Positions 1,112 through 64,000 of a stretch of DNA of 64,000 nucleotides are shown here, one piece after another; the first letter of the stretch is position 1; every line of letters starts with the position of its first letter. Below the pieces are notes generated by a model. The model ran no database searches. It was given only the letters and a program-made list of their open reading frames with translations, and was not told the origin of the DNA. The position numbers and the translations under genes are program-made. Source of the DNA: an uncultured virus (IMG/VR IMGVR_UViG_3300030518_000008). Lineage: Duplodnaviria; Heunggongvirae; Uroviricota; Caudoviricetes. The stretch is from IMG/VR virus record IMGVR_UViG_3300030518_000008, one strand, 5' to 3'.

Positions 1112-1302
1112 CGTAACCGCCCTCGCCATCGTCCTCGCGGCAACAGCCATTAGCTGCACGCCCAGCGAAACCGCCGTGGCATTCGAGATGGCGGATGCCA
1201 CATACCCCGCGCCGAGAGGGCCAAGGAAAATCGGTAACTACCATCGCGACACCTGGCTCCAAATGGCCCAGGCTGCAATCAAACATATGGAAACAACAAT
1301 AC

Positions 1303-1842
1303 ATGAAACTTAACCTCGGCTGCGGCTACAACAAAAAGGATCAGGCAGACGGCTGGGTGAATATCGACCTCTCCGGACGCTGCAATCCCGATCTGGTGCT
1401 CGACCTCGACCATGAACCGCTACCCTTCAACGAGGGGGAAATCGACGAGGTGGCGGCAACCCACGTGCTCGAACACATCCGCTACCTGCCGTTCCTGATG
1501 GGCAACCTCTACCGCGTCATGACCCCCGGCGCCCTGCTGCGCATCGCCACCCCGCACCCGGCCAGCGACGGCTTCTGGGGCGATCCAACCCATACCCGCC
1601 CGGTCACGCTGAACACACTGCGCCTGTTCAGCAAAAAGTTCTGCGCCGAAGCCCGCAGCAAGGGCTGGCCGAACACGCCGCTGGCGGATTACGCGGATGT
1701 CGATTTCGAGGTGGATGAATTTCAGTTCAAGCTGATGCCGGAGTGGGAAGAAAAGCGGTTGAACAAACAGAATATACAGTATTGTATAAATCATTACGTC
1801 AACGTTGTTGACGAATTACTGTTCACTGTCAGGAGAGTGTGA
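1303..1842 (+). CDS. Class I SAM-dependent methyltransferase (Methyltransf_11-like)
   Basis: KLNLGCG motif I, WVNID, HVLEH, DPTH. Confidence 0.88.
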   Translation: MKLNLGCGYNKKDQADGWVNIDLSGRCNPDLVLDLDHEPLPFNEGEIDEVAATHVLEHIRYLPFLMGNLYRVMTPGALLRIATPHPASDGFWGDPTHTRPVTLNTLRLFSKKFCAEARSKGWPNTPLADYADVDFEVDEFQFKLMPEWEEKRLNKQNIQYCINHYVNVVDELLFTVRRV

Positions 1843-2109
1843 TGGCCATTGCTCTTTTGTGGTTCCTTGCCGGTCCCGGTCTTGTGTGGCTGACGCTGCA
1901 ATCCTTCCGCAATGACCTGACGTTCCTCTGTTGCGTGTTTGCGTTCATGTTTTTCGGCTGGGCCTGGGCGACGTTGTGATGGCCCCCGCGCATGATACTG
2001 AGCGGCACATGATCATTGTCACCCTCCTGCGCTTTCTGCTGCTGATTTTCCTCGGTCCCCCGCTGTTTTTTCTCGCCGTCAACTACTGGGTGCATTTCTG
2101 GGGGCTGTA

Positions 2110-2694
2110 ATGGGGCAGGAAACATCGAAGGCCGTCGCCAGACGGCTGCACGACAGCCGTTTCATCGCGCGCTACTTTCGTGGCTTCGGCATTGACATCG
2201 GCAGCGGGAATGACCCGCTGCTGCATTACGCCACGCTGTTCCCAGGCATCATGGGCATCCGGAACTGGGACAAGGAGGATGGTGATGCCATGGTGATGGC
2301 GGGGGTTGATGACAACACGTTCGACTTCGTTCATTCCAGCCACTGCCTTGAGCATCTGCAAGACCCGTGGCGGGCGCTCAGGAGGTGGGTAAGCATTTGC
2401 AAGCCGGGCGGGCACATCATTATCACCGTGCCCGACTGGCAGCTTTACGAGCACGGCAAGTGGCCATCGCCGCACAACGAAGACCACAAGCATCGCTTTT
2501 GCGTATCGCCGAGCGAATGTCCGGATGATCGTCCCGTGGATCTGGCCGGCCTGATCGCGGACCTTATCTCAGTGGACTGCCTGAAAATTGAGCTGCTGGA
2601 CCAGGGCTACCTCTACGGCGCGCCCGACACGTTTGATCAGTCGTGCCTGACGATGTGCGAGCCGGCCATTGAATTCATTCTGAGGAAAAGATGA
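2110..2694 (+). CDS. Class I SAM-dependent methyltransferase (Methyltransf_11-like)
   Basis: GIDIGSG, FDFVHSSHCLEHL, KPGGHIIITVPD. Confidence 0.9.
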   Translation: MGQETSKAVARRLHDSRFIARYFRGFGIDIGSGNDPLLHYATLFPGIMGIRNWDKEDGDAMVMAGVDDNTFDFVHSSHCLEHLQDPWRALRRWVSICKPGGHIIITVPDWQLYEHGKWPSPHNEDHKHRFCVSPSECPDDRPVDLAGLIADLISVDCLKIELLDQGYLYGAPDTFDQSCLTMCEPAIEFILRKR

Positions 2695-2927
2695 AGCTCT
2701 GCAAGGACTGCAAGTGGTTCCCGCCGTTTCCGCCCGGCTCGCCCTTGGATGATCAGAGATTTGCGCGCTGCTGGCATGAACTGGCGAGGCGCGTTCCTTC
2801 GATTGATGTGGTGGTCGGGCTGTCCGCCTCGCCCTCGCATCAAATGTGCTCCACCATGCGCTTCGAGTGGGAGCCTTGCGGCCAGGACGCCAGGTTGTAT
2901 GAGGTGCGGGATGCCAGCCCTGATTAG
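2691..2927 (+). CDS. Small Cys-rich phage protein
   Basis: MKLCKDCKW...C...C...CG; ATGA-coupled. Confidence 0.6.
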   Translation: MKLCKDCKWFPPFPPGSPLDDQRFARCWHELARRVPSIDVVVGLSASPSHQMCSTMRFEWEPCGQDARLYEVRDASPD

Positions 2928-3029
2928 GGTTGGCAGGGCCGCCATCGCCGCGGTCTTCGTCATGGCCCTCTACACCTACATCGCGGTCGCTATCGTGTTC
3001 GTGGTCTACCTGTTTTGTGAGGCGTTCAG

Positions 3030-4436
3030 ATGACCCCGCTTGTTGAGCTGGCACTTTACCGCATTCTCGACGGCAACATAGAGGATGCCCAGGACTTGCT
3101 GCCGGCGATCGAGGCCGAGGGCAACGAGGCCATGGCGTGTCAGATCCGCGGGCGCATTCAGCTTCGGCAGAAGAAGTGGGCGGGAGCGCATGACTACCTG
3201 CAACGCTCCGTCAGCCTCGACCGCTCCAGTCCCGACGCCTGGATCTGCCTTGGCATGGCCAGTTACGAACTGGGGTTTTTCGAGAAGGCGGCGGAGTGCT
3301 ACCGTCGCTGCATTATCCTCCAGCCCAACTTCGGGGTGCAGTGGATGAAGCTGGGTGCCGCGCATGGCATGCTCCAGCGTCATCCGGAAGCATTCACCTG
3401 CTTCGAGCGGGCGGTGATCCTCGATCCCAACAACGATGAGTGCCATCACTCCCTCGCGGTGCAGTACAGCATCTTCGGCTCCGATGAGCGGGCGATCGTG
3501 CATGAGGAAAAAGCCCTCGAACTCAACCCCAACAACATCTTCGCCAGGGTGGCGCTGGGTGCCACGCATCTGCGCATGGGCAACTGGCTGGAGGGATGGC
3601 GGGGCTTTGAACACCGCTGGTCCCTGCCGACGCCCGTGGCGCCGTGGTGGTATCGTGGCCAGCCGCTCTACCAGGGCGATCTGGAGGGGTTGCGTGGCAA
3701 GCGGGTGCTGCTGCGCTCAGAGCAGGGCTACGGTGACAGCATCCAGTTCTGCCGTTACGCGGTGGAGTTGTCCAAGGTTGCCTCGCATCTGATTCTGGAA
3801 ACCCAGGGCGGTCTGCAACGGCTGTTCAAATGCCTGCCGGCTGAGATATTCGTGGCGCCGAAGATGGAAGATCAGGTTCGTCCGCTGCCGAACGATCAGC
3901 TTCCGCCATGGGATGAACAGACGAGCCTGATGTCCCTGCCGCTGCTGTTCGGCACCACCCAGGAGACGTGCCCCCCGCCCGTCGACTTCGGCGGCGGCCT
4001 CTATATCCGCCCCGGCAAGGGCAAGGTCGGCATCTGCTGGCATGGCGGGGCTCGCTACAGCGAGCCCCTGGCTAATGCCGTGGATCAGCGCCGATCGTTG
4101 TGGCCGGAAGTGGCCAAGCGCCTGCTCGACGCCATCCCCTATCACCGCTCGCTCCAGCAGGAGGATCTGGACACCGAGGACTGGCTGGAGACGGCGGAGA
4201 AGATCGCCGATCTGAAACTGGTGATCAGCGTCGACACCGCGGTTGCCCATCTGGCCGCCTCCATGGGCGTCCCCACCTGGCTGCTTAATCGTTACGATAG
4301 CTGCTGGCGCTGGGGCATGCGTGGCGACAGAACGCCCTGGTATCCGTCCATGCGCATCTACCGCCAGCCGACGCTCGGCGACTGGGACAGTGTGCTTGAC
4401 CGCGTGATCGCGGACTACAAGGCTCTTGACCTGTGA
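3030..4436 (+). CDS. TPR-repeat protein with C-terminal GT-B (GT9-like) glycosyltransferase domain
   Basis: N-terminal TPRs; EQGYGDSIQFCRY; VISVDTAVAHLAASMG; WRW...TPWYPSMRIYRQ. Confidence 0.88.
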   Translation: MTPLVELALYRILDGNIEDAQDLLPAIEAEGNEAMACQIRGRIQLRQKKWAGAHDYLQRSVSLDRSSPDAWICLGMASYELGFFEKAAECYRRCIILQPNFGVQWMKLGAAHGMLQRHPEAFTCFERAVILDPNNDECHHSLAVQYSIFGSDERAIVHEEKALELNPNNIFARVALGATHLRMGNWLEGWRGFEHRWSLPTPVAPWWYRGQPLYQGDLEGLRGKRVLLRSEQGYGDSIQFCRYAVELSKVASHLILETQGGLQRLFKCLPAEIFVAPKMEDQVRPLPNDQLPPWDEQTSLMSLPLLFGTTQETCPPPVDFGGGLYIRPGKGKVGICWHGGARYSEPLANAVDQRRSLWPEVAKRLLDAIPYHRSLQQEDLDTEDWLETAEKIADLKLVISVDTAVAHLAASMGVPTWLLNRYDSCWRWGMRGDRTPWYPSMRIYRQPTLGDWDSVLDRVIADYKALDL

Positions 4437-4559
4437 TGGTCTGTTGCGCGTGCGGGACCGCCGAGTGGTTCCGCGCCGTCCCGGCGACGATGCAGACGTG
4501 GTGCCGTGACTGCGATCCCCTGCTGACGGATCAGCCCGTGATGCGGTATCACGTCTCGC

Positions 4560-7500
4560 ATGACCGTGACGAAACCCAAACAACCCAAGTGGCTCCAGTT
4601 ATTCCGGAGGTACTTGAAGGAAATCAGAATCCAGTCGAAGCACACGTCGGAGGATATCGACGGGACTGGCGTGCCGCTCACTCTGTGGACCTCTCAAAGC
4701 CGGGTTCTGGAGCAGATTTGTCAGGGCCTGGAAGATGACATCCACGTCTTCTACATTCTGAAATCCCGCCAGCTCGGGGTGACGACGATCACCATCGCCA
4801 TCATCCTGTTCTGGCTCGCCTATCACCCCAACACCATCGCCTGCCTCGTTTCGGACGGCCCGAAGAACTACGCCAAGAACCGCGAGACGGTGCGCAACTA
4901 TGTCAACTCCCTGTCAAAGTTCATGGGAAAATCGTTCTCATTGGACAAGAAATACGGGGCGAAGGACAACCAGTTTGGCTTCACCTTTTCCAACAAGTCC
5001 CGCCTCGACATGCTCACCGCCGGCAACAAGTCGGCCTGGGGCGAGGGTGAGGGCTATGTCGTTGGACACCTCACCGAAACGGCTTCGTACGGCAGGGAGG
5101 AAGGCATATCGTCCTTCCGGCACTCCATGGCGCCGGAAAATCCCCGCGCGCTCTACATCTTTGAATCCACGGCTCACGGCAACAACCACTGGCGCGACAT
5201 GTGGGAGGCGGCGATGGCGGATGAGCATTCGTCTCGCTGCATCTTCGTCGGCTGGTGGTCGCACGACCTCCAGCGCATCCCGCAGACCGATCGCCGGTTC
5301 AAGAGGTTCGGCACCGCTCCGCCGACGCCGGAGGAAACCGAGCGGATAGTAGCGGTCAAGCGGCTCTACGACTTCGATATCAGCATGGAGCAACTGGCCT
5401 GGTATCGCATGGAGATGACGCGCCCCAATTCGGGCGAAACGGACATGGCGCAGAATCAGCCCTACACGGCTGATGAAGCGTTCGTGCAAAGCGGCGTCAG
5501 CTTCTTCGGCCCCAAGCGCGTCCAGGCCCGCATCGATGAAATCCGCTCCGCCCCCGTTGGCGGCGTCGAGGACGGCGGCTTTGGCTACAAGGCGTACGAA
5601 TTCTACCTTGCCGACGAATACCACCTCTGCCGGGTGGAGGCGCTGACACAGGATATCCGGACAGAGCGGATCAAGCTGCGCGTGTGGGAATACCCGAACC
5701 CGGAAGGCGTCTATGTCATTGGCTGCGATCCGGCGGGGGGACGCAGTGAGCTATCCAATCATCACTGTCTGGACCAAGAGACCGAAATTCTGACCAAGGC
5801 AGGCTGGAAGCGTCACGATGAGGTTGTCGTTGGGGATGAGGCGGTTTGCTTTGATTGCGACACCGGCAGCTACGCGTACGGCCCGGTCCAGCGCGTAATC
5901 CGCCGGAATGTAGACGAACCTCTTTATCGTTTTGCGGGCCGCGGCGTGGATATTTTGGCCACTGCTGACCATCGCATGGTTCATCGCTATAAGCATGGCT
6001 ACAGATACACAAAAATCACAGGCTGGACGGTTTGCACGGCTGAAGAGCTTGCGCAGTCTGGGCGGGCGTTCATTCACGTCCCGTCTTCTCGTGCGCCTTG
6101 TGGCCAAGGCATTCAAGGCCTGACGTTGGACATGTGCAGAGCCCTGGGGTGGATACTGAGTGATGGCTTCATTGCTCAGTCTGAGCCGGTAATTGGCGGT
6201 CCAAGGGAAAGCCAAAAGCATGTGCGACCATACATTGTGCTTGCGCAAGCAAGAGTGACGAACAAGGCAGGCATTAATATTTCTGCGGCGATGGAGGAGG
6301 TGTTTTCCAGGCTGGCGCCCGACGCTTCGATAATCAAAACCCCTGAGACTGAAGCGGGAACAGAGAAAATAACCATTCGCATCGGCAGCAGGGTGGCAGC
6401 GCAATTTATGCGCTGGCTGCCGGGCCAGGTTTGCTTAAAAAAAGATCGTCGCATACCTCGCAGTCTTCTGACTGAAACGTCTCAACAGCAAGCGGATGCG
6501 CTTTTCACTGGGATCTTGGAAGGTGACGGCAGTTGGGCAACGCGCGATGCGGTTTGGTCAAAGGTTTGTCCGGGTGCGGGCGAAGGTCTTGCTGATGATG
6601 TCCAGGAACTTGCAATACGTTGTGGCTGGAGCGCCACCAAGGGGTCTCAGATTGACCCGTCGTCCGGAAATTTACAATGGATTATACATTTATCAAAAAG
6701 AGATCATCGGCGGATAGAATTTCAGGGTCTTGAGCACTATGCCGGACCGGTTTGGTGCGTGACGGTCCCGACCGGGGCGTTTGTAGCGCGCCGGCGGGGT
6801 TATGGTTTCGTCACGGGCAACTGTGTGTCGGTCTGGCGTGTCTTCGCGGACAAGATGGTTCAGGTTGCCGAGTGGGCTGATGGCATCCCCGAGACTCGCC
6901 ATTGCGCCTGGATTTTGGCTTACCTCGCCGGGCAATACAAAAACTGTCGGATCAACATCGATCTGACGGGCGGCATCGGAACTGCGGTGATGCAAAGCTT
7001 CGATGATCTGCGCACGCGCATGCGTTCGGAACTTTACCAGACCGAAATCCGCCAGGCGGCCGAGCGGGAAATCCAGCGCAAGAGGGAGGACGATCCCTCG
7101 CGGCCCAAGCGTTCCGAGAATGCCCCGCCCAGCAACTTCGATTTTGATGACTTTCTCGGCGCGGCAAGCTGGTATCTGTACAGGCGGATAGACAGCCCCG
7201 GCCCCGGCTATCAGTACAACACGGTGGTCAGCCAGCGGATCAAGTACCACACGATGAACATCCTGCGGGATGCCTTTGTCACCGGCCTGCTGGAGATCAG
7301 ATCCATCCCGCTGCTGGAGGAAATGGCTGATGTCGTTGACGATCACAGCAAGATCGACATCGGCGCGTCAGCGCCGGGCAGGCTGCGCGATGACCGCACG
7401 TTCGCCCTGGCGCTGGCCAACTCGACATGGGTCGAGAACGTCCGCGGCGGCCTGATAGCCCAGGGCATCACGTACCAGTCCGCGCGGGCGAAGGAAAGCG

Positions 7501-7622
7501 GCGAGTTGTCGCCGATCGCCGATGCGCTCAACCGGCGGATCTACAACATCATGGTCGCCGCGGATCAGGAAATGGACGCCCCGCCGCCCCGCACCTTCAT
7601 GGAAAAGAGGGGCCTGCTCTGA
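4560..7622 (+). CDS. terL: Terminase large subunit, intein-containing
   Basis: Walker A-like ILKSRQLGVTT, Walker B-like GHLTE, IFESTAHG coupling motif, nuclease VIGCDPAGG and DDRTFALALA. Confidence 0.92.
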   Translation: MTVTKPKQPKWLQLFRRYLKEIRIQSKHTSEDIDGTGVPLTLWTSQSRVLEQICQGLEDDIHVFYILKSRQLGVTTITIAIILFWLAYHPNTIACLVSDGPKNYAKNRETVRNYVNSLSKFMGKSFSLDKKYGAKDNQFGFTFSNKSRLDMLTAGNKSAWGEGEGYVVGHLTETASYGREEGISSFRHSMAPENPRALYIFESTAHGNNHWRDMWEAAMADEHSSRCIFVGWWSHDLQRIPQTDRRFKRFGTAPPTPEETERIVAVKRLYDFDISMEQLAWYRMEMTRPNSGETDMAQNQPYTADEAFVQSGVSFFGPKRVQARIDEIRSAPVGGVEDGGFGYKAYEFYLADEYHLCRVEALTQDIRTERIKLRVWEYPNPEGVYVIGCDPAGGRSELSNHHCLDQETEILTKAGWKRHDEVVVGDEAVCFDCDTGSYAYGPVQRVIRRNVDEPLYRFAGRGVDILATADHRMVHRYKHGYRYTKITGWTVCTAEELAQSGRAFIHVPSSRAPCGQGIQGLTLDMCRALGWILSDGFIAQSEPVIGGPRESQKHVRPYIVLAQARVTNKAGINISAAMEEVFSRLAPDASIIKTPETEAGTEKITIRIGSRVAAQFMRWLPGQVCLKKDRRIPRSLLTETSQQQADALFTGILEGDGSWATRDAVWSKVCPGAGEGLADDVQELAIRCGWSATKGSQIDPSSGNLQWIIHLSKRDHRRIEFQGLEHYAGPVWCVTVPTGAFVARRRGYGFVTGNCVSVWRVFADKMVQVAEWADGIPETRHCAWILAYLAGQYKNCRINIDLTGGIGTAVMQSFDDLRTRMRSELYQTEIRQAAEREIQRKREDDPSRPKRSENAPPSNFDFDDFLGAASWYLYRRIDSPGPGYQYNTVVSQRIKYHTMNILRDAFVTGLLEIRSIPLLEEMADVVDDHSKIDIGASAPGRLRDDRTFALALANSTWVENVRGGLIAQGITYQSARAKESGELSPIADALNRRIYNIMVAADQEMDAPPPRTFMEKRGLL
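5766..6821 (+). mobile_element. Intein (352 aa) with LAGLIDADG homing endonuclease in terL
   Basis: Starts CLDQETEILT; block B ATADHRM; LAGLIDADG-like ALGWILSDG and FTGILEGDG; ends VWCVTVPTGAFVARRRGYGFVTGN followed by Cys; visibly lower GC. Confidence 0.93.
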
Positions 7623-7643
7623 AGCCGTCAGGCATGTCGGCGG

Positions 7644-7859
7644 TCAGTAGCCGCCCCACCGCAGCCCGGCCAGCGGCAGGATTTCCTGTAGCACCACCAG
7701 CAACAGGATGATCAGGAACACGACCAGGGCTACCTGGCGGAAAACCGCCGGCACGCCGGGGATCGCGTTGGTAATGGTGACAACGATCCAGTAGACCAGT
7801 CCGAGGACGAGAAAAACGATCAGCAGGTGGATGAGAAGGGGGATCATCGGCAATGTCAT
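7644..7859 (-). CDS. Small two-TM membrane protein
   Basis: Two hydrophobic helices; GGAG RBS. Confidence 0.65.
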   Translation of the reverse strand: MTLPMIPLLIHLLIVFLVLGLVYWIVVTITNAIPGVPAVFRQVALVVFLIILLLVVLQEILPLAGLRWGGY

Positions 7860-7965
7860 GCTCCGGTCTGGTGAAACTCTTTATGGGCGTTGCCGCGGTT
7901 GTGCGCTTGCAATATAACATTGTGCGAGTTGCTTCCCGTCAAATCCGGCCGAAGGATCGCCCGCG

Positions 7966-8901
7966 ATGTCATTTGTGGCGTCACAGCTTCATGTTGTGGC
8001 TGTCGTCTCCAACCCGCTGCGATTTGCCTCCCGCATCCGTTTGACCAAGGCGTTCTGCGAGCAGCAGCTTGCGGCCGGTGTCAGTCTCACCCTGGTTGAG
8101 TGCGCCCTTGGCGATCGGGCATTTGACTTTGAGCACATTGACCCGCGCATCAATTTTGTCGGGGTGAGGCACACCACGATCTGCTTCCACAAGGAGAGCC
8201 TGATTAACATCGGCCTGTCCCGGCTGCCGCGGCACGCGGCATATATCGCCTGGATCGATGCTGATGTCATGTTCCGGTGTCCGACGTGGCCGCTGGACAT
8301 TATTCACGCTCTCCAGCAGTACAGCGTGATTCAGCCGTGGGAAACAGCGCTCGACCTTGGGCCGCGTGGTGAAATTCTGGATGTTCACACCAGCTTCGCG
8401 GCCCTGTTCGTTCAGGGCCGTCCGATCTTCCCCACCTGGCGCAAGGGCTACACCTTTGGCCACCCCGGCTACTGCTGGGCCGTCAGAAGGGAAATTGTCG
8501 AGCGGGTCGGCGGGCTGTATGATGCCGCCATCCTCGGTTCAGCGGATCACAATATGAGCCTTGGTCTTCTGGGCCGGGTGACAGAGACATTCCCGGCGGA
8601 TATCAGCCCCGAATTCACCGCCTCGCAGCTTTCGTGGCAGGCCAGGGGGCGGCATTTCATCGGGGAGCGCATTGGGTATCTGCCCGCCTCGGTCATAGAG
8701 CACACTTTCCATGGGGCCAAGGCGAAGCGGGGCTACGTGTCGCGGTGGGATATATTGCGAAAGTGGAAATACAATCCGGTCACCGATATCCGGCGCAACC
8801 TTGACGGCGTTGTTGAGCTTTGCGGCAACAAGCCGGGGTTTCAGAAGGATGTCGAGGCGTATTTCGCCTCTCGCGATGAGGATTCAAACCAGGCGCGATG
8901 A
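7966..8901 (+). CDS. GT-A fold glycosyltransferase-like protein
   Basis: HKESLINIG, AWIDADV (DxD), GHPGYCWA, LGSADHNM, HTFHG. Confidence 0.7.
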   Translation: MSFVASQLHVVAVVSNPLRFASRIRLTKAFCEQQLAAGVSLTLVECALGDRAFDFEHIDPRINFVGVRHTTICFHKESLINIGLSRLPRHAAYIAWIDADVMFRCPTWPLDIIHALQQYSVIQPWETALDLGPRGEILDVHTSFAALFVQGRPIFPTWRKGYTFGHPGYCWAVRREIVERVGGLYDAAILGSADHNMSLGLLGRVTETFPADISPEFTASQLSWQARGRHFIGERIGYLPASVIEHTFHGAKAKRGYVSRWDILRKWKYNPVTDIRRNLDGVVELCGNKPGFQKDVEAYFASRDEDSNQAR

Positions 8902-9228: not shown

Positions 9229-9544
9229 TCATGCTACGATCGAGGGCGAGATGGCCGCTCCCATGGTGGAAACGCCAGTGGCAAAGGCTCCGCCTGCGCC
9301 TGATGTGTCGTGGCTGGATATAGCGACGGCGCCGCGCGACGGCACGCTGGTTGAGCTGCACTACACCACGCACATTCCGGACAAGCCGATTTACGCACGC
9401 TACCGGGTCACCCGCCGGCGCATTGACCGGGGCTGGAAGCCGGTTGGGTTCTGGTCCGATCCGGTGTCGCGCGAGGAAATCGGCGGCGAGCCAACCGGCT
9501 GGCGCCTGCCGGAAGGGTATCTGTATCCCGGCATGGTGCTTTGA
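9209..9544 (+). CDS. Phage protein of the W-x-x-I-x-TAPRDGT type
   Basis: WLDIATAPRDGT ... PTGWRLP. Confidence 0.65.
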   Translation: MPPRKHDHATIEGEMAAPMVETPVAKAPPAPDVSWLDIATAPRDGTLVELHYTTHIPDKPIYARYRVTRRRIDRGWKPVGFWSDPVSREEIGGEPTGWRLPEGYLYPGMVL

Positions 9545-10104
9545 CCGATCGCCCTCGCTACCAGCACTGGTTCAGGTGCAGGGCGTGCGCCACGCGGTTC
9601 CATGTGGTGCGTGTCACGGATGACCCGGCCAAGGTGAAGACGCCGCGCTGCCCGAAGAAGTCGTGCGGCGGCAAGGCCAAGCCGTCGTTTGTGCCGGACA
9701 TTCCGATGGACGTGGCCGGCGGCAAGGCGCCGGCTGTCACGGGTGCCAATGTGCAAGTCTCTGCCTATGATCGGTCCATGGAAATCGCGATGGCCGATCA
9801 TCAGATGACGGACATCCAGGATCATTCGCGTCCCGGTGCGATCTATCGCGGCGGTGAGAGCACCGCGCCCAAGCTGCCGGCCCATCTCCAAGCCCAGGCC
9901 GATGGCTTCTGGGGCGGCGCACAGAAGCCGAAGACGCGATCCGCCAAGGTGGATTTGTCACCGATTTACGGGCAGCGCGCGACGGACGCCGGAGCGCCCG
10001 CCGCGCAGTTCAAAGCCGACGCCGGCTCACTGATCGAGCCGATTTTGAGGCACCGGCCGGCGGGTTCGTCGCCGATCCCCGCGCACACAGTAATCGCGGA
10101 GTAG
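9541..10104 (+). CDS. Zinc-ribbon protein
   Basis: CRAC...CPKKSC; TTGA-coupled start. Confidence 0.65.
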   Translation: MTDRPRYQHWFRCRACATRFHVVRVTDDPAKVKTPRCPKKSCGGKAKPSFVPDIPMDVAGGKAPAVTGANVQVSAYDRSMEIAMADHQMTDIQDHSRPGAIYRGGESTAPKLPAHLQAQADGFWGGAQKPKTRSAKVDLSPIYGQRATDAGAPAAQFKADAGSLIEPILRHRPAGSSPIPAHTVIAE

Positions 10105-10132
10105 TACCCGTTACTGCCCGAAATCTCGTGGT

Positions 10133-10221
10133 GTGGTATGATTTCACACCATGAGAATCCCATCGAACCCGAATGAGCGGGCCGAATTCGTCTCCGAGAT
10201 CATCCGCGCGTGCTCGCAGTC
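10133..10221 (+). repeat. 89-bp exact direct repeat, left copy (portal upstream region and 5' end)
   Basis: Identical to 11673-11761. Confidence 0.97.
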
Positions 10222-10252
10222 CGGTGCCGAATCATCGCGTCATTGCCGATGA
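10151..10252 (+). pseudogene. Truncated portal 5' fragment (33 codons)
   Basis: First 24 residues MRIPSNPNERAEFVSEIIRACSQS match the portal, then it diverges and stops. Confidence 0.85.
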
Positions 10253-10277
10253 TCCAGCACCGTTTTCCAGAAAGGGT

Positions 10278-10450
10278 TAGCCTGCCCCGCCATGCCTTGC
10301 CTGGCCATGCCTGCCCCGCCTTGCCTGCCTTGCCTGCCATGCCTGCCTTGCCTGCCATGCCTAGCCATGCCTAGCCATGCCTGGCCCCGCCGCGCCTTGC
10401 CTGCCATGCCTAGCCCCGCCTTGCCTTGCCTTGCCTTGCCCCGCCTCGCC
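10278..10450 (-). ncRNA. GGC-NN repeat array, putative guide RNA(s) of a VIPR-like system
   Basis: 36 consecutive GGC triplets with 29 two-nt and 7 single-A spacers; begins 4 nt after the stop of the upstream gene on the same strand. The array is certain; the RNA function is inferred. Confidence 0.75.
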
Positions 10451-10454
10451 CCGA

Positions 10455-10955
10455 TCAGGCCAATTCAAGCCGCTTCGACCGAAGCTTTTTCGACGCGGTT
10501 TGCAGGGCCTCGGTTGCTTCGGCCAGTTCGGTGTATCTGGCTAGGTTAACTCGGAGGGCTTCTATAGAATTTAAATACTGATCGATGATGGATCGCCTCA
10601 ACTCCGGGACGTTGGCCGAGTATTTTGCTGATGTGTAGCGATGCCCGGCATCTATTTGCACAGATACAAACGCCCTGAAGCATTCGTCTGACGGCTTCCC
10701 TGGCTCAATTATAATGATATGGTTGATGAGCTTTCTGGCTTGTTCTTTGCGGTATTCCTCGGCGGCAACGTCATCGTTCCATTCAAATGCCGGATGCAGC
10801 GGCGCGTCCAGAAGACGCGCCGCGTCCACGATGGTTTCTGGTTGAAAGAACTCTCCACACTCTTTGCGGATACGCTCAATCTCTTCTCCCGCCACCTGCG
10901 CGGGGATCGATTTATAAAATCCTTCCTTAAAGGAATAGGTCGGTTTGCGTGCCAT
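10455..10955 (-). CDS. Partner protein of the Cas7/RAMP-like gene (166 aa)
   Basis: MARKPTYSFK... with PETIVDAAR..DAPLHPAFEWNDDVAAEEYRKEQARKLI; ATG overlaps the upstream stop (TGATG). Confidence 0.85.
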   Translation of the reverse strand: MARKPTYSFKEGFYKSIPAQVAGEEIERIRKECGEFFQPETIVDAARLLDAPLHPAFEWNDDVAAEEYRKEQARKLINHIIIIEPGKPSDECFRAFVSVQIDAGHRYTSAKYSANVPELRRSIIDQYLNSIEALRVNLARYTELAEATEALQTASKKLRSKRLELA

Positions 10956-11554
10956 CAAACGTCTCCTGTGCTTTTTACGTGGAAAAGCCCATACATGCCG
11001 TCTCTCTGGGGACGCCATTCGCCAACTCCGATTGCAAATCCCGCAATGGTAAACAAGTGGGTGATTTGTTCGGCAGAAAGTACGCCAGCGTTGTGCCGTA
11101 TGCGCAATGTCGTCCTCCATGGGTTGAATTCGCCACGAAATCTGATGTCGGCGGTTCCCATGCCGATCCGAACCATGTCTTCGCGCGGGCGAGGTTCGCC
11201 TTCTAGTTTGACCAGCTCTCCGACAATGTGAAAGGCGCCGCGTGCCTCGACTTTGGTGATTCCGTCAACATGAGAGCACGCATCAACCGCTGCCGCTTTG
11301 AAAGCGATTGTGGGGAATCCCCAACCACCGCCGGGGTAGGGGTAAAGACTGTCCAGGAAATCCGTTTCCGGGGATTTTGCATCCTTTGCTGCCTTTGCCC
11401 GCTTCATCTGCTTGTCAAGCATTTCCTTTTTGGCCTTCTCTGACCAGCTATGACAGATGAGTGGGGCATCGCCGATAAGGGTGATCTGCATATCACGAAG
11501 ATCGAATAGCGGCATTACGAGAGGCGGTTTATTAACCGCCGCAGCCTTGGCCAT
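10955..11554 (-). CDS. Stand-alone Cas7/RAMP-superfamily-like protein (Vipr-like)
   Basis: RAMP-like layout: ITLIGDAPLICH first strand, FPTIAFKAAAVDA helix, DIRFRGEF, C-terminal Gly-rich loop AGFAIGVGEWRPQRDGMYGLF. Confidence 0.75.
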   Translation of the reverse strand: MAKAAAVNKPPLVMPLFDLRDMQITLIGDAPLICHSWSEKAKKEMLDKQMKRAKAAKDAKSPETDFLDSLYPYPGGGWGFPTIAFKAAAVDACSHVDGITKVEARGAFHIVGELVKLEGEPRPREDMVRIGMGTADIRFRGEFNPWRTTLRIRHNAGVLSAEQITHLFTIAGFAIGVGEWRPQRDGMYGLFHVKSTGDV

Positions 11555-11578
11555 GGGTCAGACCCTTGGTTGAGGTTA

Positions 11579-11610
11579 GGTCATACGGAAGCGCCAACTT
11601 CCGTATGACC
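11579..11610. promoter_or_regulatory. Perfect 13-bp inverted repeat in the leader of the RAMP-like operon
   Basis: GGTCATACGGAAG-cgccaa-CTTCCGTATGACC. Confidence 0.6.
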
Positions 11611-11612
11611 GT

Positions 11613-11640
11613 ATATTATGAATACCGGAGAGTTTGTAAA
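11613..11640 (-). promoter_or_regulatory. Possible sigma70 promoter for the RAMP-like operon
   Basis: Minus strand TTTACA-16 nt-TAATAT in an AT-rich stretch. Confidence 0.35.
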
Positions 11641-11672
11641 GTGATTTACCCGTGCGGCGGCTGCATTTTGGC

Positions 11673-11761
11673 GTGGTATGATTTCACACCATGAGAATCC
11701 CATCGAACCCGAATGAGCGGGCCGAATTCGTCTCCGAGATCATCCGCGCGTGCTCGCAGTC
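11673..11761 (+). repeat. 89-bp exact direct repeat, right copy
   Basis: Identical to 10133-10221; carries the TATGAT of an extended -10-like TGGTATGAT 8 nt before the portal ATG. Confidence 0.97.
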
Positions 11762-13469
11762 GCGTTCGGAGCGCATTCAGCGGGGCTTGGCGTTCAGAAA
11801 TCTGTTCCTGACCGGCGACGAGAACGGCGTTCCGCAGACATTTCTGCGAACACAGGACTTCATCCGCGATGTCCTGGCCATTCTCTACAGCCCGATAGGT
11901 CTGCGCTTCAAATGTGAGTATTTCGGGCAGGTCAGCCCAGCCGAGCGCGCCAAGGGCTCGGCTGCGGCGGCCGGGCTGCTCCAACACGTCATCAACAACA
12001 ACATCGACGACAATATCAGCGACATCGTCCTCTGGTCCCTGGTCAAGGGGAAGACGATACAGCAGCTTCTGTGGTCGCGGGGCGGCTTCGAGAGCTGGCT
12101 GATCCAGCCCGAATCATTTGGCGTCTACAATGAGAACGTCTCCAGCCTGGCCCGCCAGGAAGCGTTCATTCACTCGACGTTCCCGACGCGCAGCCGGTTT
12201 CGCCAGATCATTTCCGGACTGCCGCCGGCCAAGCAGGCGGCGCTGATGAAGGCAGCCGACAACCTCCAGACGAAAAACCGCGGCGGGGAGGACAACAACG
12301 GCACGCTCAAACAGATTATCGTTGGCGGCCTTTACCCGTTCCAGGCGGGCGGCAGCTCGCCGGCCACCGGCGGCGGCACCGTAACCCACCTGTTCGCCCC
12401 CCAGCCGGCGATGCAGTCCGCCGTTGTCGACCAGCTCGTGCCGCTGGAGGAAGTCTGGATGTGGAACAACGCCCAGGATGACTGGGCAACGGTCACCATG
12501 CTCGGCGAGCAGATCGTGTTTGGCGAAGATGTCCTGTTCAACGCCTTCGCCCAGGGGTCTGACACCCAGCGGGGGGTTTACAACGAGGACAACCCGCTGA
12601 GGGGCCAGCACGGCTTCGTTGAATACTGCGCCCTGCCGCTGGACGGCTATTTCTGGGGGGTGAGCTTCGTTAGCCTCGTGGCCCTGCTCCAGCGATCCCT
12701 GAACAACCGCATTGACGGCATCAACCGGATGCTGCGGATGCAGGAAGACCCGGCCCGGTTCTTCACCGGCAGCACGTCGATCAACCAGAACGCCTATGCC
12801 AAGCTGAACAAGCCGGGCGGATATTTCACAGACGGCAACCCCAGCGCGAAAGTCGAGAAGCTTGCCGATCAGGTGCCGCCCGACATCTGGAAATCGTTCG
12901 CCGAGATCAATGGAATGTTCGACACCATCGGTGGGTTCCCCCCGATCATGCGGGGAGAAGGCGAGGGGTCGGTACGCAGCCAGGGGCAGTCAGACACCTT
13001 GGTGCGGCAGGGTGCGGCACGGCACTTAGATGCGGCCCTTAAAATAGAGCGTTCTGTTGAGTGCGCGGGCGGGGTGATTTTCGACCTCTTGCGCGCCAAG
13101 AGCAGTCAGCGGCTGACGGCATGGGTGATGCCGAACGAGCAGTCCATTCAAACGGACATCGAGCCGGACCCGTCCCTTGAGCCGCCGGTCAAGGGCATGC
13201 AGCCGATAACGTTCACTTACTCAAACATGTTGGACAACACGAAAGTCAGCGTGGACAGCCATTCGTCCAGCCCGGCGTTCTCGCACGACATCAGGGAGCT
13301 GGCGTTCGCCTTGGCTAAAATCGGCGCCGCTTCACCGAAGCGGGTTGCTCAGATCATCGGCGCACCGATGCAGGATGAGCTGGTCGAGGATGCTGAGCGG
13401 AAGGAAATCGAGACCGCTGCGTTGTTGCAGGCGCACCCGGAGCTGCTTGAAAAGCATCATAAGAAGTAA
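11691..13469 (+). CDS. Portal protein
   Basis: 592 aa between terminase and scaffold/capsid; FWGVS...LQRSLNNRIDGI and GFPPIMRGE...S segments typical of podovirus portals. Confidence 0.8.
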   Translation: MRIPSNPNERAEFVSEIIRACSQSRSERIQRGLAFRNLFLTGDENGVPQTFLRTQDFIRDVLAILYSPIGLRFKCEYFGQVSPAERAKGSAAAAGLLQHVINNNIDDNISDIVLWSLVKGKTIQQLLWSRGGFESWLIQPESFGVYNENVSSLARQEAFIHSTFPTRSRFRQIISGLPPAKQAALMKAADNLQTKNRGGEDNNGTLKQIIVGGLYPFQAGGSSPATGGGTVTHLFAPQPAMQSAVVDQLVPLEEVWMWNNAQDDWATVTMLGEQIVFGEDVLFNAFAQGSDTQRGVYNEDNPLRGQHGFVEYCALPLDGYFWGVSFVSLVALLQRSLNNRIDGINRMLRMQEDPARFFTGSTSINQNAYAKLNKPGGYFTDGNPSAKVEKLADQVPPDIWKSFAEINGMFDTIGGFPPIMRGEGEGSVRSQGQSDTLVRQGAARHLDAALKIERSVECAGGVIFDLLRAKSSQRLTAWVMPNEQSIQTDIEPDPSLEPPVKGMQPITFTYSNMLDNTKVSVDSHSSSPAFSHDIRELAFALAKIGAASPKRVAQIIGAPMQDELVEDAERKEIETAALLQAHPELLEKHHKK

Positions 13470-13578: not shown

Positions 13579-14280
13579 TCACGCGACGACGCTAACGTGG
13601 AAGTAATCTGCCCCCGCAATCCCGTTCGTGGTCGGCGTGCTTCCGTATGACACAGACAGCCGGCCATTCGACAGGTCGGCGGTGGTGTATCCGGACAGCG
13701 TCACCCCGACTTCTGGCTTCCCGAAGGCGGTGAAAACCCCGGTCAGGCCCGTATAGCCGGACGCGCCCTGGCCATTGAGCCATGTCAGGGCGAAATCCTG
13801 CGGTGTGACGCCCCAGCAGGTGATGCCGTCGCCGGCGTGCCCGTCCGAAATGGTGTCCCACTGGTTCAGAACCAGCGAGCGGGCGTCGAGGTAAAACTGG
13901 TTGTCGCCCGAGCCGCCGGTGAGGAAGTCGGACCCCGCCCCAGCGTCCAGGATGTTGTTGCCGCCGCCCGCTGAGGTGTTGATCGAGCACAAATCGAAGC
14001 CGCCGCCCGCCAGAATGAACACATCCGGCGTTGTCGCCGCTGACGACACATCCAGCGTGCTTTGTCCGGCGGCAAAGCCAGGCCCCGGTCCGGATGCCAG
14101 CTCGGCTGCCGCCCCGGCCTGCGTTGTGACGGCCCCGCCCAGGTCCAGCTCGGACTGAATGCTCGCAACCGGCCCCGAGTAGGGCGTTCCAGCGTCCTCG
14201 GCCTCGCCGCCGAAGGAGTTGAAGACGTAGAACTCGCCGCTGGTGGGCGTTGGGGTCGGCACGCTCGGTTTGGCTGTCAT
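13579..14280 (-). CDS. RTX/Ca-binding-repeat-like protein, probably host-derived
   Basis: GGGNNILDAGAGSDFLTGGSGDNQFYLDAR nonapeptide-like repeats; opposite strand to the head genes. Confidence 0.65.
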   Translation of the reverse strand: MTAKPSVPTPTPTSGEFYVFNSFGGEAEDAGTPYSGPVASIQSELDLGGAVTTQAGAAAELASGPGPGFAAGQSTLDVSSAATTPDVFILAGGGFDLCSINTSAGGGNNILDAGAGSDFLTGGSGDNQFYLDARSLVLNQWDTISDGHAGDGITCWGVTPQDFALTWLNGQGASGYTGLTGVFTAFGKPEVGVTLSGYTTADLSNGRLSVSYGSTPTTNGIAGADYFHVSVVA

Positions 14281-14526
14281 AGAAATTGTTTCCTGTTCTG
14301 GTTCGCCGTTCTGGCAGATCAGAATTGACTTGCACAATCCCAACGTCAAGGAATTTCCAGACACAATCGAGCTCGTTCGTTGTGCGTTGTTTGTTCTTTT
14401 CCGCAAATTAGGTCAGTACTGCTGACGTTCCTTGACCTTCATCGTTTCCATAGGTTAAGAGTCGCGTGTCTCAGGCCCTGAGATCCCCCGTGGGTAGCTC
14501 TGGGGGTGCTTTGAAGGAGAAACCCT

Positions 14527-15874: not shown

Positions 15875-16969
15875 ATGTCAGGTTCAATAACCCAATTTAC
15901 CGGCCCCAGCAGTGGCGGCATGGTTCCTGGCGGTCTAACCGGCCAGCAGCTTTCCTACATCACGCGCCGGGCGATCATCCCGACCGTGTTCGTGCAGGTC
16001 TACCAGGCGCATCCGCTGCTGTCGCTGCTGCTGGCGAATACCCAAGCGGCCATGGGCGGTGTCGGGCAGATCACCTTCCCGGTTCAGGGATCGAGCTTCG
16101 TGTCGTTCCAGTGGGGCGGCTTCGGCGGTGACTTTCAGATCCCGCAGGATCAGGTCGCACTGAACAACGCTCAGTTCAACCTCAAGGCCGGCATGGTTCC
16201 GATCGGCTTCTTCGGGTTTGAGAGTATAATCCAGTCTTCTGAAGTCGTTATTCCCAAGCTTCGGGCGGTGACATCGGACGCCGCAGTCGTTATGAAGCAG
16301 TCGCTTGCTACTTCTCTGTATTCATATACTCAGAATACTCTAGCTCTAGATTCTCTAGTTGGCGCATACGATAACGGCACAAACACCGCGACGTATGGGG
16401 GCATCGCCCGTACCAACGGCTACTGGCAGGGTCAGTTTTACCCGAACTCGGCGACGATATCGAACCGCCTGGGCATCGCTCAGGCCCTGGTGAAGGTTCA
16501 GACGGGCGCGGGCGGCGAGTCACCCGACTTCATTATCATGAACCCGGTGAACTGGGCCACGCTGATGGCCGACTTCATGGGCGCCGAGATTTTCAACACC
16601 GATCCGCGCAGCCGCTATGGCCGGGGTGATGTGGTGAACGCCGGCTTCCGCGCGATCCGGGTGCTCGACACGCCGATTTTCTCGGACCCATTCTGTCCGG
16701 TCGGTGAGATGTACATGATCAACTCGCGCTATCTCGCGATGTTCATGCACCCTTCGTTGCAGATGTATTTTACTGGCTTTGAATCTATGATTCCGCAAGG
16801 GCAGTTGGCCTCGATCGGCGTCCTCGTTGCCGCGCTCAACATGTGCTGCATGAAGCCGTCTTCGGGTGCGCACTTCACCGGCCTCCAGTCTCCTGGCTGG
16901 GTGGGCGGACCGCCGCCGCCGCCGGCAATCGCCTCTGCTACCGCCTTCGCTGGCGCTCCACTGGTCTAA
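15875..16969 (+). CDS. Major capsid protein
   Basis: 364 aa, AGGAGA RBS, PDFIIMNP and PIFSDPFCPVGEMYMINSRYL (HK97-fold-like motifs). Confidence 0.85.
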   Translation: MSGSITQFTGPSSGGMVPGGLTGQQLSYITRRAIIPTVFVQVYQAHPLLSLLLANTQAAMGGVGQITFPVQGSSFVSFQWGGFGGDFQIPQDQVALNNAQFNLKAGMVPIGFFGFESIIQSSEVVIPKLRAVTSDAAVVMKQSLATSLYSYTQNTLALDSLVGAYDNGTNTATYGGIARTNGYWQGQFYPNSATISNRLGIAQALVKVQTGAGGESPDFIIMNPVNWATLMADFMGAEIFNTDPRSRYGRGDVVNAGFRAIRVLDTPIFSDPFCPVGEMYMINSRYLAMFMHPSLQMYFTGFESMIPQGQLASIGVLVAALNMCCMKPSSGAHFTGLQSPGWVGGPPPPPAIASATAFAGAPLV

Positions 16970-57163: not shown

Positions 57164-57879
57164 CGGCCGGAATCCGATGCGTTGCGGGCAAGGTCGACCA
57201 TGCTCGGCGTGAGTTGAATGCTATAAATTGACATTTGTTCCCCTCAGTCCTTGATGGAATCTGATACGTCGCTCCCCTGCGGGAAGCGGAAAGCTGTCCA
57301 TGACACCCATAGCTGCCATGGCGCATCGTCAGTCAGCCGCTTCGGCCGTGGCGGTATCGTCAACGGATCTGGCGATTTCTCGTGAACGGTCAGCAGCCTT
57401 AGATCTAGCTTGTTCAAGTTTGTTTCCCCTGATTTTCTGGTGGCAGCGCTGCCTTAGTCGAGCGGCGCGCGTCAGCAGCAGACGCACGCCTAGCTCCGGA
57501 TCGTCAGTCATGTAGCAGCGCCGGAAGATACTTCGATGTGGCGATAAGCTCCATCGATGAGCGGCCCATGCTGCAAGGGCGCCAAGTGCTAAGGATCAGT
57601 TCGGCAAAGGGCAGTCGGTGAAACATCTCCTCTGCCTCTTTGAGCGTGAGAAAGTCACGGCATAGCGTGGCGCTGATAACCTGATAGGTGGTCATGCGGC
57701 ATGTTCTCCTGTGCCAGGTGCATTTTCCGGTGTCAGCAGCATCAGCACGAAATCAATGCGTCGCTGCAAATCCGTTGGTGGTGGCGGTTCATGGTGTCCG
57801 GCTTGCCGTAATGCGCGGTAGGCATCAGCAAGTTGGCCAACCAACTTCATCTGGTAGCTTGTCATATATGTTTTCTCCC

Positions 57880-58224
57880 CTAGCCGTCTCCGGAGCCGCC
57901 ACGGTAGCCGTCGCCGCCGCCCCAGCCGTAGCCGTCGCCGGCGCCAGAGCCACCGCCGTAGCCACCGCCCCAGCCGTCACCGTAGCCGTCGCCGAAGCCG
58001 CAGCCGTCACCTTCGCCGCCACCCCAGCCGTAGCCGTCGCCGGCGCCGCCGCTGTAGCCGTCACCGTACCCCAGGCCGCAGCCGTCGCCGGAGCCCCAGC
58101 CGGAGCCCAAGCCGTAGCTGGGGCCCCAGCCGAGGCCGAGGCCGGGGCTGGAGCCGGAGCCGTAGACGTAGCCGGAGCCGCCATCCCAGCCGTCACCGTC
58201 GTGGCCGTGGTGTCTGGTCGCCAC
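57880..58224 (-). repeat. GGY-NNN hexamer array, (Gly-X)n ORF or RNA repeat
   Basis: About 50 units of GGC/GGT plus a variable triplet; directly after the DUF6948-like gene. Confidence 0.8.
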
Positions 58225-63638: not shown

Positions 63639-63883
63639 CGGACGAAACCGAACATTCCGAAGGTGCTCTGAATGGGTATGCCCTTGAGTTGGCACTGCAC
63701 GTCCTGACGGATTTCACCGATCCAGCGGAGCAGATGATGATTGTGGAGGTGGCTGTCTGCAATGTCATCCTCAACCTCTCAGTGCCGGATTGCCGCAAGA
63801 TGGACGTGATTGAAATGCTGGCTGCCAAATGCCGCCCGCTGCTGCGCAACGCCCTGGCGGCCAAGGCGAAGGAGATGAACTGA
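63635..63883 (+). CDS. Hypothetical protein
   Basis: GTGA-coupled; its 3' end also appears at 1-50. Confidence 0.6.
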   Translation: MTDETEHSEGALNGYALELALHVLTDFTDPAEQMMIVEVAVCNVILNLSVPDCRKMDVIEMLAAKCRPLLRNALAAKAKEMN

Positions 63884-64000
63884 TGAAGTGGCAAAAGCAC
63901 GAGACTGTTGCCGGTCACCAGTTCTATCCCAACGGGGTTTGCGCCTGCGGCCGGCGCTGGGTGGACATACGCAATGCCGGTACGGAAGACTTGTTTTCCT
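63834..64000. repeat. Terminal direct repeat / circular overlap (copy 2)
   Basis: Matches 1-167 with one mismatch. Confidence 0.97.

Follow-up and report, generated by a model that had tools for sequence, protein, structure and literature searches.

A phage VIPR locus with a staggered multi-guide array and GGCA/GGC marks as its probable guide boundaries

The minus strand of an uncultured tailed phage carries, from position 10450 to position 10278, a chain of GGC triplets that are followed mostly by two variable bases (NN) and in a few places by a single A. The question raised by this locus is what the single-A breaks do: do they separate individual guide RNAs, or are they read through within one long guide? 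The window, i.e., the whole 64,000-nucleotide stretch of DNA that was analyzed, resembles a complete tailed-phage genome, with major head, tail, endolysin, ERF, and DnaB genes, and its ends (1 to 167 and 63834 to 64000) overlap by 167 bp with one mismatch, reflecting either circular assembly or a terminal repeat. The stretch was present in 20 runs labeled peat metagenome, and host marker searches gave weak matches.

Components of the vipr-vap-array locus

VIPR, a CRISPR-related RNA-guided DNA silencer, was described in preprints from 2026 (bioRxiv 10.64898/2026.04.26.720920). According to these preprints, one Vipr protein binds each pentamer, pairing with the target is gapped, and rival phages and satellites are silenced (10.64898/2026.04.26.720920; 10.64898/2026.04.26.720927; 10.64898/2026.10.15.759431); a further VIPR preprint is 10.64898/2026.10.21.760802. 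A literature search for VIPR yielded no paper beyond these four preprints among the matches listed. The locus in the window has the vipr-vap-vrRNA layout of VIPR systems and is composed of the following features.

10278..10450, minus strand: vrRNA array of 36 GGC units, made up of 29 NN units and 7 single-A marks (GGCA/GGC), from the minus-strand parse
10406..10450, minus strand: block 1, nine pentamers (GA GG AA AA AA AA GG TA AT), a putative intact guide 1 of a size typical of blocks in relatives
10357..10401, minus strand: block 2, nine pentamers (AA GC GG CA AT TA AT TA AT), a putative intact guide 2, from the parse
10278..10356, minus strand: short blocks (1, 1, 1, 2, and 5 units plus a terminal TA), probable decayed guide remnants, judged by block sizes in relatives, the related locus L006, and variation between records
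10222..10262, minus strand: tail hairpin 3' of the array (z -5.2 on the minus strand, z -3.35 on the plus strand)
10455..10952, minus strand: vap-like accessory gene, 165 aa, ATG at 10952, with a predicted winged-helix-like N-terminal domain and a long C-terminal helix (phrog_15946, E 2.6e-18)
10955..11554, minus strand: vipr, 199 aa, predicted RAMP/RRM fold with thumb and G-loop (SUSP1 Vipr profile match, Foldseek, conserved residues)
11579..11610, no strand assigned: perfect inverted repeat of 13 bp, downstream of the putative promoter and ahead of the vipr start, nearly identical in L006
11613..11640, minus strand: putative sigma-70-like promoter TTTACA-16-TAATAT upstream of vipr (a consensus match, with equal spacing in L006)

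Parsing by GGC reproduced the spacer string given in the first-pass annotation, which reads, with single-nucleotide spacers in parentheses, GA GG AA AA AA AA GG TA AT (A) AA GC GG CA AT TA AT TA AT (A) AA (A) AT (A) AA (A) AA GG (A) AT CA AA AT GG (A) TA; likewise, the statements that all seven 1-nt spacers are A and that the first two blocks consist of exactly nine pentamers each were correct. From the window alone, given the use of A at this position, seven A's out of seven have a probability of about 0.016. The longest GGY chain in the window is the array itself, with 35 units, compared to 4 units elsewhere in the window, and no GGY chain longer than 5 units arose in 100 simulations under a third-order Markov model; the length of the chain is not due to chance.

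For the 199-aa protein, 4,943 relatives were found at E ≤0.001 among 5,229 candidates. Its best sequence match in the PDB is SUSP1 Vipr (PDB 36pp), with an E value of 0.068 for the single sequence and 6.6e-8 with a 108-sequence profile, and the structural model (pLDDT 89.5) retrieved CRISPR Csm and other RAMP complexes as top Foldseek matches (E ~1e-4, TM 0.4 to 0.5). The residues of SUSP1 Vipr reported to contact GGY are R138, D177, W178, and R179 (10.64898/2026.04.26.720927). These align with R140, E179, W180, and R181 of the window protein, three of which (R140, W180, and R181) are invariant in the Vipr alignment, while E179 is at least 90% conserved. Alignment and modeling thus identify the gene as vipr, encoding a predicted RAMP homologue with an RRM core, a thumb, and a G-loop. 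The SUSP1 type II system resembles the one described here in having a homologous Vipr and an accessory protein that is predicted to bind DNA, although the two Vipr proteins are distant in sequence, as the E values above indicate. Class 1 CRISPR RAMP proteins (Csm3/Cas7 type) are of an equal fold class according to Foldseek; in the window, however, the guide information lies in NN pairs rather than in a repeat-spacer array, and neither a CRISPR repeat-spacer array among the repeats found in the window nor cas genes among its scanned open reading frames (ORFs) were detected.

The Vap model (pLDDT 94) aligned with winged-helix-type chains at middling VIA-align Z scores of 6.2 to 6.7, and since these are under 7, the winged-helix assignment is only a lead. 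No nuclease or helicase domain, as in VIPR types III to V, gave a Pfam match above the cutoff in Vap, its best folds being winged-helix type and coiled coil at Z <7. Among 75 non-identical related viral loci (the best 80 of 98, minus 5 identical), 68 carry a vap homologue on the same strand as vipr, and a vap search of 50,697 phage records returned 33 matches, all from Mycobacterium phages, Gordonia phages, or cyanophages. Both vipr and vap have a lower GC3 than the neighboring genes (0.57 versus 0.80 to 0.81). Within vap, a 25-bp palindrome (10799 to 10823) has a 5-base loop (10809 to 10813) that was found in both orientations, encoding R-L-L-D in the window and record L001 and the family-favored R-P-E-D in L002 to L005, L198, and L006. 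Contigs of two runs begin or end at this palindrome, one of them carrying the alternative form, and the loop is either a polymorphic micro-inversion or an assembly artifact.

Upstream of vipr, the 13-bp inverted repeat could be an autoregulatory operator or a 5' hairpin; the similarity to loci L007 to L010 also starts there, at 11580. Downstream of the array, the tail is identical to that of L006 over 61 of 61 bases, and because its hairpin is followed by four T's on the plus strand, it may also stop convergent transcription. It is the one strong hairpin after the last block, none being present between blocks. An Rfam search of 9500 to 12000 returned no match.

GGCA/GGC marks as candidate guide boundaries

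The system type as such has already been described, and staggered arrays and wobble skipping are in print. In staggered arrays, guides overlap by one base, according to the main text and the legend to fig. S18 of the discovery preprint (10.64898/2026.04.26.720920), the sections on which this statement is based; RNA sequencing in that preprint, going by its text, covers ribozyme-type and single-guide loci only, not the staggered layout. Like staggered VIPR loci, the locus in the window lies in a phage, combines vipr with a single vap gene and a GGY/NN array, shifts its register by one base from one guide-sized block to the next, and has no self-target; it differs in that most of the marks bound stubs and in that an 89-bp duplication frames the cassette. 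This comparison is with the text and that legend, and the preprint's own data may already include this clade and junction.

The first-pass annotation had proposed that GGCA marks guide boundaries or processing sites, and the comparison with relatives supports the former. In the loci drawn from the best 80 of 98, we found 73 distinct arrays at 47 of the 75 loci, all within 4 kb of the vipr match. GGCAGGY is present in 46 of these 47 array-bearing loci, and 192 of 241 four-base units are GGCA/GGY. The distance from mark to mark equals 4+5n in 106 of 130 cases, and the blocks in between have a median length of 10 units, with 8 to 12 units in 79 of 106 blocks and 5 or fewer in only 5 of 106, again for loci from the best 80 of 98. 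Across 62 of 91 loci, 174 distinct in-register blocks were compared, and their NN units beside the marks are mildly biased (AT as the last unit in 27 of 174; AA and AT as the first unit in 32 of 174 each); since they are still variable, the mark itself appears to be short, with free flanking NN.

Whole blocks are also gained and lost. Of 27 matching mycobacteriophage records, 8 were compared: the array of Donkeykong has two additional whole blocks relative to that of Brocalys, and ByChance has one block fewer than Saal, with a one-unit difference in the neighboring block as well. A 55-nt block recurs in 7 of the 8, and two-unit stubs occur as well. Cultured mycobacteriophages (27 records) and Gordonia phages, among them loci L184 to L186 and L201 to L208, carry this VIPR clade, its proteins being annotated as hypothetical, with small ORFs annotated across the array in several of these records and with vipr and vap annotated as a single fused frame in phage Gorge. 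Entry of new guides at the 5' end would agree with the comparison of the window with L006 and with the shared last mycobacteriophage block, but we do not claim it, as L009/L010 and L030/L032 differ at the 3' end.

Judged from these comparisons, the single-A breaks most likely separate individual guides, and we assign a probability of roughly 0.8 to the reading that the locus encodes a phage VIPR system in which a staggered array carries several guides of about 9 to 12 pentamers, set apart by GGCA/GGC. vipr, vap, and the array follow one another in the same orientation on the minus strand and are probably transcribed as one RNA. Cleavage of this RNA at or close to the marks would release the individual guides, the boundary being supported by comparative genomics and the cutting being what we infer from it. 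By homology to SUSP1, one Vipr protomer would occupy each pentamer, with GGC buried and NN presented, and, on the basis of that homology and the NN statistics, NN would pair with double-stranded DNA while skipping every third target base. Together with a Vap that probably binds DNA and is not a nuclease, the Vipr complex would then most likely silence genes of competing phages or satellites in the same host.

Only blocks 1 and 2 look usable in the window; the 3' blocks have probably shrunk by slippage between repeats. The guide size given for VIPR is 9 to 16 repeats, a range that includes blocks 1 and 2, with 9 each, and excludes the 3' blocks. Of the six further records of this phage, five (L001, L003, L004, L005, and L198) lack one AA(A) 9-mer in the array, L002 being like the window, and the array in run X20 has the identical 9-base deletion, which points to slippage as the source of length polymorphism in the 3' half of the array. 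Given that the last blocks are longer in L006 and that such short blocks are rare among relatives, the short 3' blocks are probably remnants. Three observations count against a multi-guide array with the marks as guide boundaries: no natural target was found in our scans for either window block or for blocks of three relatives (see below), five of the array's seven marks bound blocks that are too short for guides, and no internal block has its own tail. The SUSP1 guides that were tested are described as separate RNAs that each have a structured tail (10.64898/2026.04.26.720927; 10.64898/2026.10.15.759431), whereas the window blocks abut and have one common 3' hairpin.

That single hairpin at the 3' end would also be expected if the array formed one long guide, with the filament continuing across each GGCA as an abbreviated unit, read either as A by itself or as AG whose G is shared with the next triplet, and with the marks being register slips rather than ends. 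Some vrRNAs do reach 30 repeats, as reported in the structure preprint (10.64898/2026.04.26.720927), and AG never occurs among the 29 NN units of the window. AG is, however, an ordinary pentamer in L006 and occurs as such 83 times in relatives (loci from the best 80 of 98), for which reason we rejected "single A equals AG with a shared G" as a general rule. As the relatives also show guide-sized spacing and gain or loss of whole blocks, and as read-through models gave no match within the window, we consider a single long guide unlikely.

More improbable still is that the system, while real, is a decaying relic with guides that have drifted off their targets and an array that changes only through slippage. 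The short 3' blocks, the copy number polymorphism of the 9-mer, the low-complexity run of four AA units inside block 1, the missing targets (see below), and the minority 5-base inversion in the window vap (R-L-L-D versus R-P-E-D in the family) would fit decay. On the other hand, the vipr and vap frames are intact and 95 to 96% identical to those of L006, blocks 1 and 2 do not differ among the seven records of the phage, and exact-match scans miss mismatched targets or targets in unsampled DNA. Finally, a nonfunctional microsatellite or a by-product of the small overlapping 85-aa frame (10292 to 10549, plus strand) is hardly credible, despite the period-5 repeat called by TRF, the tract being better read as a programmable guide array, because, as the first-pass annotation had already noted in arguing against a decaying microsatellite, GGC is constant while NN varies, because arrays lie within 4 kb of a vipr match at 47 of the 75 related loci (from the best 80 of 98), and because L006 combines an equal leader and tail with different NN content.

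Codon register of the NN units and searches for targets

The first-pass annotation further suggested that, if every third target base is skipped, guides could tolerate codon-wobble escape. A 1-nt skip, usually at the wobble base, is indeed the published VIPR rule (10.64898/2026.04.26.720920), and NN usage across the clade is consistent with it; the check proposed with the suggestion, an enrichment of target matches over shuffled controls, has so far given no support for block 1. In the 174 in-register blocks of the clade, NN usage correlated with sense codon positions 1 and 2 (r = 0.79), compared to at most 0.34 for the other five registers, and sense codon positions 1 and 2 formed the best-scoring register in 87 of 174 blocks, versus 29 expected. 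Since wobble skipping predicts this very register, the correlation is consistent with it, although a preference of the RNA as such for purines could account for part of it.

Exact scans of viral contigs with a 1-nt skip produced 14 loci for block 1, representing 7 distinct sites with a GC content of 0.33 to 0.48, of which 2 were in the sense-wobble frame; the single shuffled control of block 1 produced 8 loci at 8 distinct sites. The first-pass prediction that a gapped search would exceed its shuffled control was therefore not borne out for this block. Block 2 matched 5 loci in viral contigs, at 2 distinct sites, and 63 in metagenomes, at 36 distinct sites; most of these were TA microsatellites, AT-rich stretches, or frequently occurring Asp-x-Asp motifs. 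In these exact 1-nt-skip scans of viral contigs and, for block 2, also of metagenomes, no credible natural target was found for either block, and no locus had both blocks within the fetched flanks, the best reaching 14/18 and 15/18.

Other searches gave similar results. With skips of 0 to 3 nt, the window plus 1.6 Mb of collected loci contained no match above 14/18 at the 1-nt skip. In line with the earlier failure to find targets by eye, the phage's own genome contains none, the best 1-nt-skip matches covering 13/18 and 12/18 NN bases. Two records of this phage were free of block 1 matches even with up to three mismatches allowed. Guides of three relatives gave no credible target either: a 9-unit L006 seed matched 7 loci, none of which extended (19 to 21 of 26), two seeds from phage Quico had 0 and 2 matches, the latter attributable to chance, and an 11-unit Rhizobium block was found in 0 of 251 genomes. 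The discovery preprint accepts an 80% target match (10.64898/2026.04.26.720920); since our collection scans were for exact matches, and since targets may lie in unsampled DNA, a real target could have been missed.

Insertion of the cassette at the portal-like gene

The cassette sits where a portal-like gene begins, a gene that itself precedes the major head gene (15875 to 16969). The following plus-strand features border the cassette.

10133..10221, plus strand: left copy of an exact 89-bp direct repeat, with an extended -10-like motif and the first 23 portal-like codons (sequence identity)
11673..11761, plus strand: right 89-bp copy, which provides the start of the intact portal-like gene (sequence identity)
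11691..13469, plus strand: portal-like gene, 592 aa, the insertion site of the cassette (portal protein PDB 7z44, profile E 0.0011)

The left copy leads into a 33-codon dead-end frame (ATG at 10151) and is directed antisense into the array, where it meets the tail hairpin with its four T's on that strand. No relative of the portal-like gene was found in genome_contigs. In locus L107, the flanking genes are arranged as in the window, with a 54-bp gap and no cassette, and in L006 the cassette occupies the equivalent site without the 89-bp duplication; together, the empty site and the filled site lacking the duplication suggest a recent transfer of the cassette. Identity between the window and L006 is 95 to 96% for vipr and vap and 100% for the tail, compared to 66 to 72% for the beginning of the portal-like gene and for two genes upstream. 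Another upstream gene reaches 90%, so that the region is mosaic with respect to L006, and the L006 array has the window's leader and tail with different NN content. The left junction falls inside a 6-base word common to the L006-type cassette end and the portal codons, and the right junction falls inside a 22-base common promoter stretch. The simplest reading of these sequences is that the cassette came from an L006-like phage via two staggered crossovers that duplicated the intervening sequence.

There is a weak hint that the 89-bp repeat could permit loop-out of the cassette. In run X8, cassette depth was 9 to 10.6, versus 17 to 20 in the flanks, i.e., about half; depth was equal in X7 and noisy in X20. 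Among the joints listed for four runs, none skips the cassette, but contigs break at the repeat either way.

Several neighboring features were observed along with these. A 1,020-aa gene (4560 to 7622) has a weak N-terminal terminase match, and its residues 400 to 500 match phage families annotated as PhoH-like and thymidylate synthase; our guess is that an intein is inserted in it, and L006 apparently lacks about 1 kb of this gene. Surrounding this terminase-like gene (1195 to 8901) are two methyltransferase genes, a TPR glycosyltransferase gene, and a 311-aa gene, possibly a virion- or DNA-modification module. On the minus strand, against the direction of the head genes, a 275-aa gene (13579 to 14406) encodes a protein with one RTX calcium-binding repeat that resembles C-terminal domains of Azospirillum secreted proteins (32 to 45%). 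A Gly-rich tandem repeat of 6/12 bases (57878 to 58207) lies within a 122-aa minus-strand ORF beside a DUF6948 gene.

Tentatively, and with more doubt than confidence, we speculate that GGCAGGC also serves as a recombination joint at which guides are added, dropped, or swapped, a form of updating without Cas1, and that the cassette is itself transferable, having arrived at the portal promoter through a pair of staggered crossovers and being able to loop out via the 89-bp repeat, such that armed and unarmed genomes would coexist in one population. In the portions of preprint text available to us, we met no answer to how VIPR guides are acquired or transferred between phages. The window array is a compact and clean test case for the staggered-array layout, and because the same clade is present in cultured Mycobacterium smegmatis and Gordonia phages, the guide boundary can be tested at the bench. 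The blockwise turnover of the arrays and the duplication-flanked insertion of the cassette bear on how VIPR arrays gain guides and move between phages.
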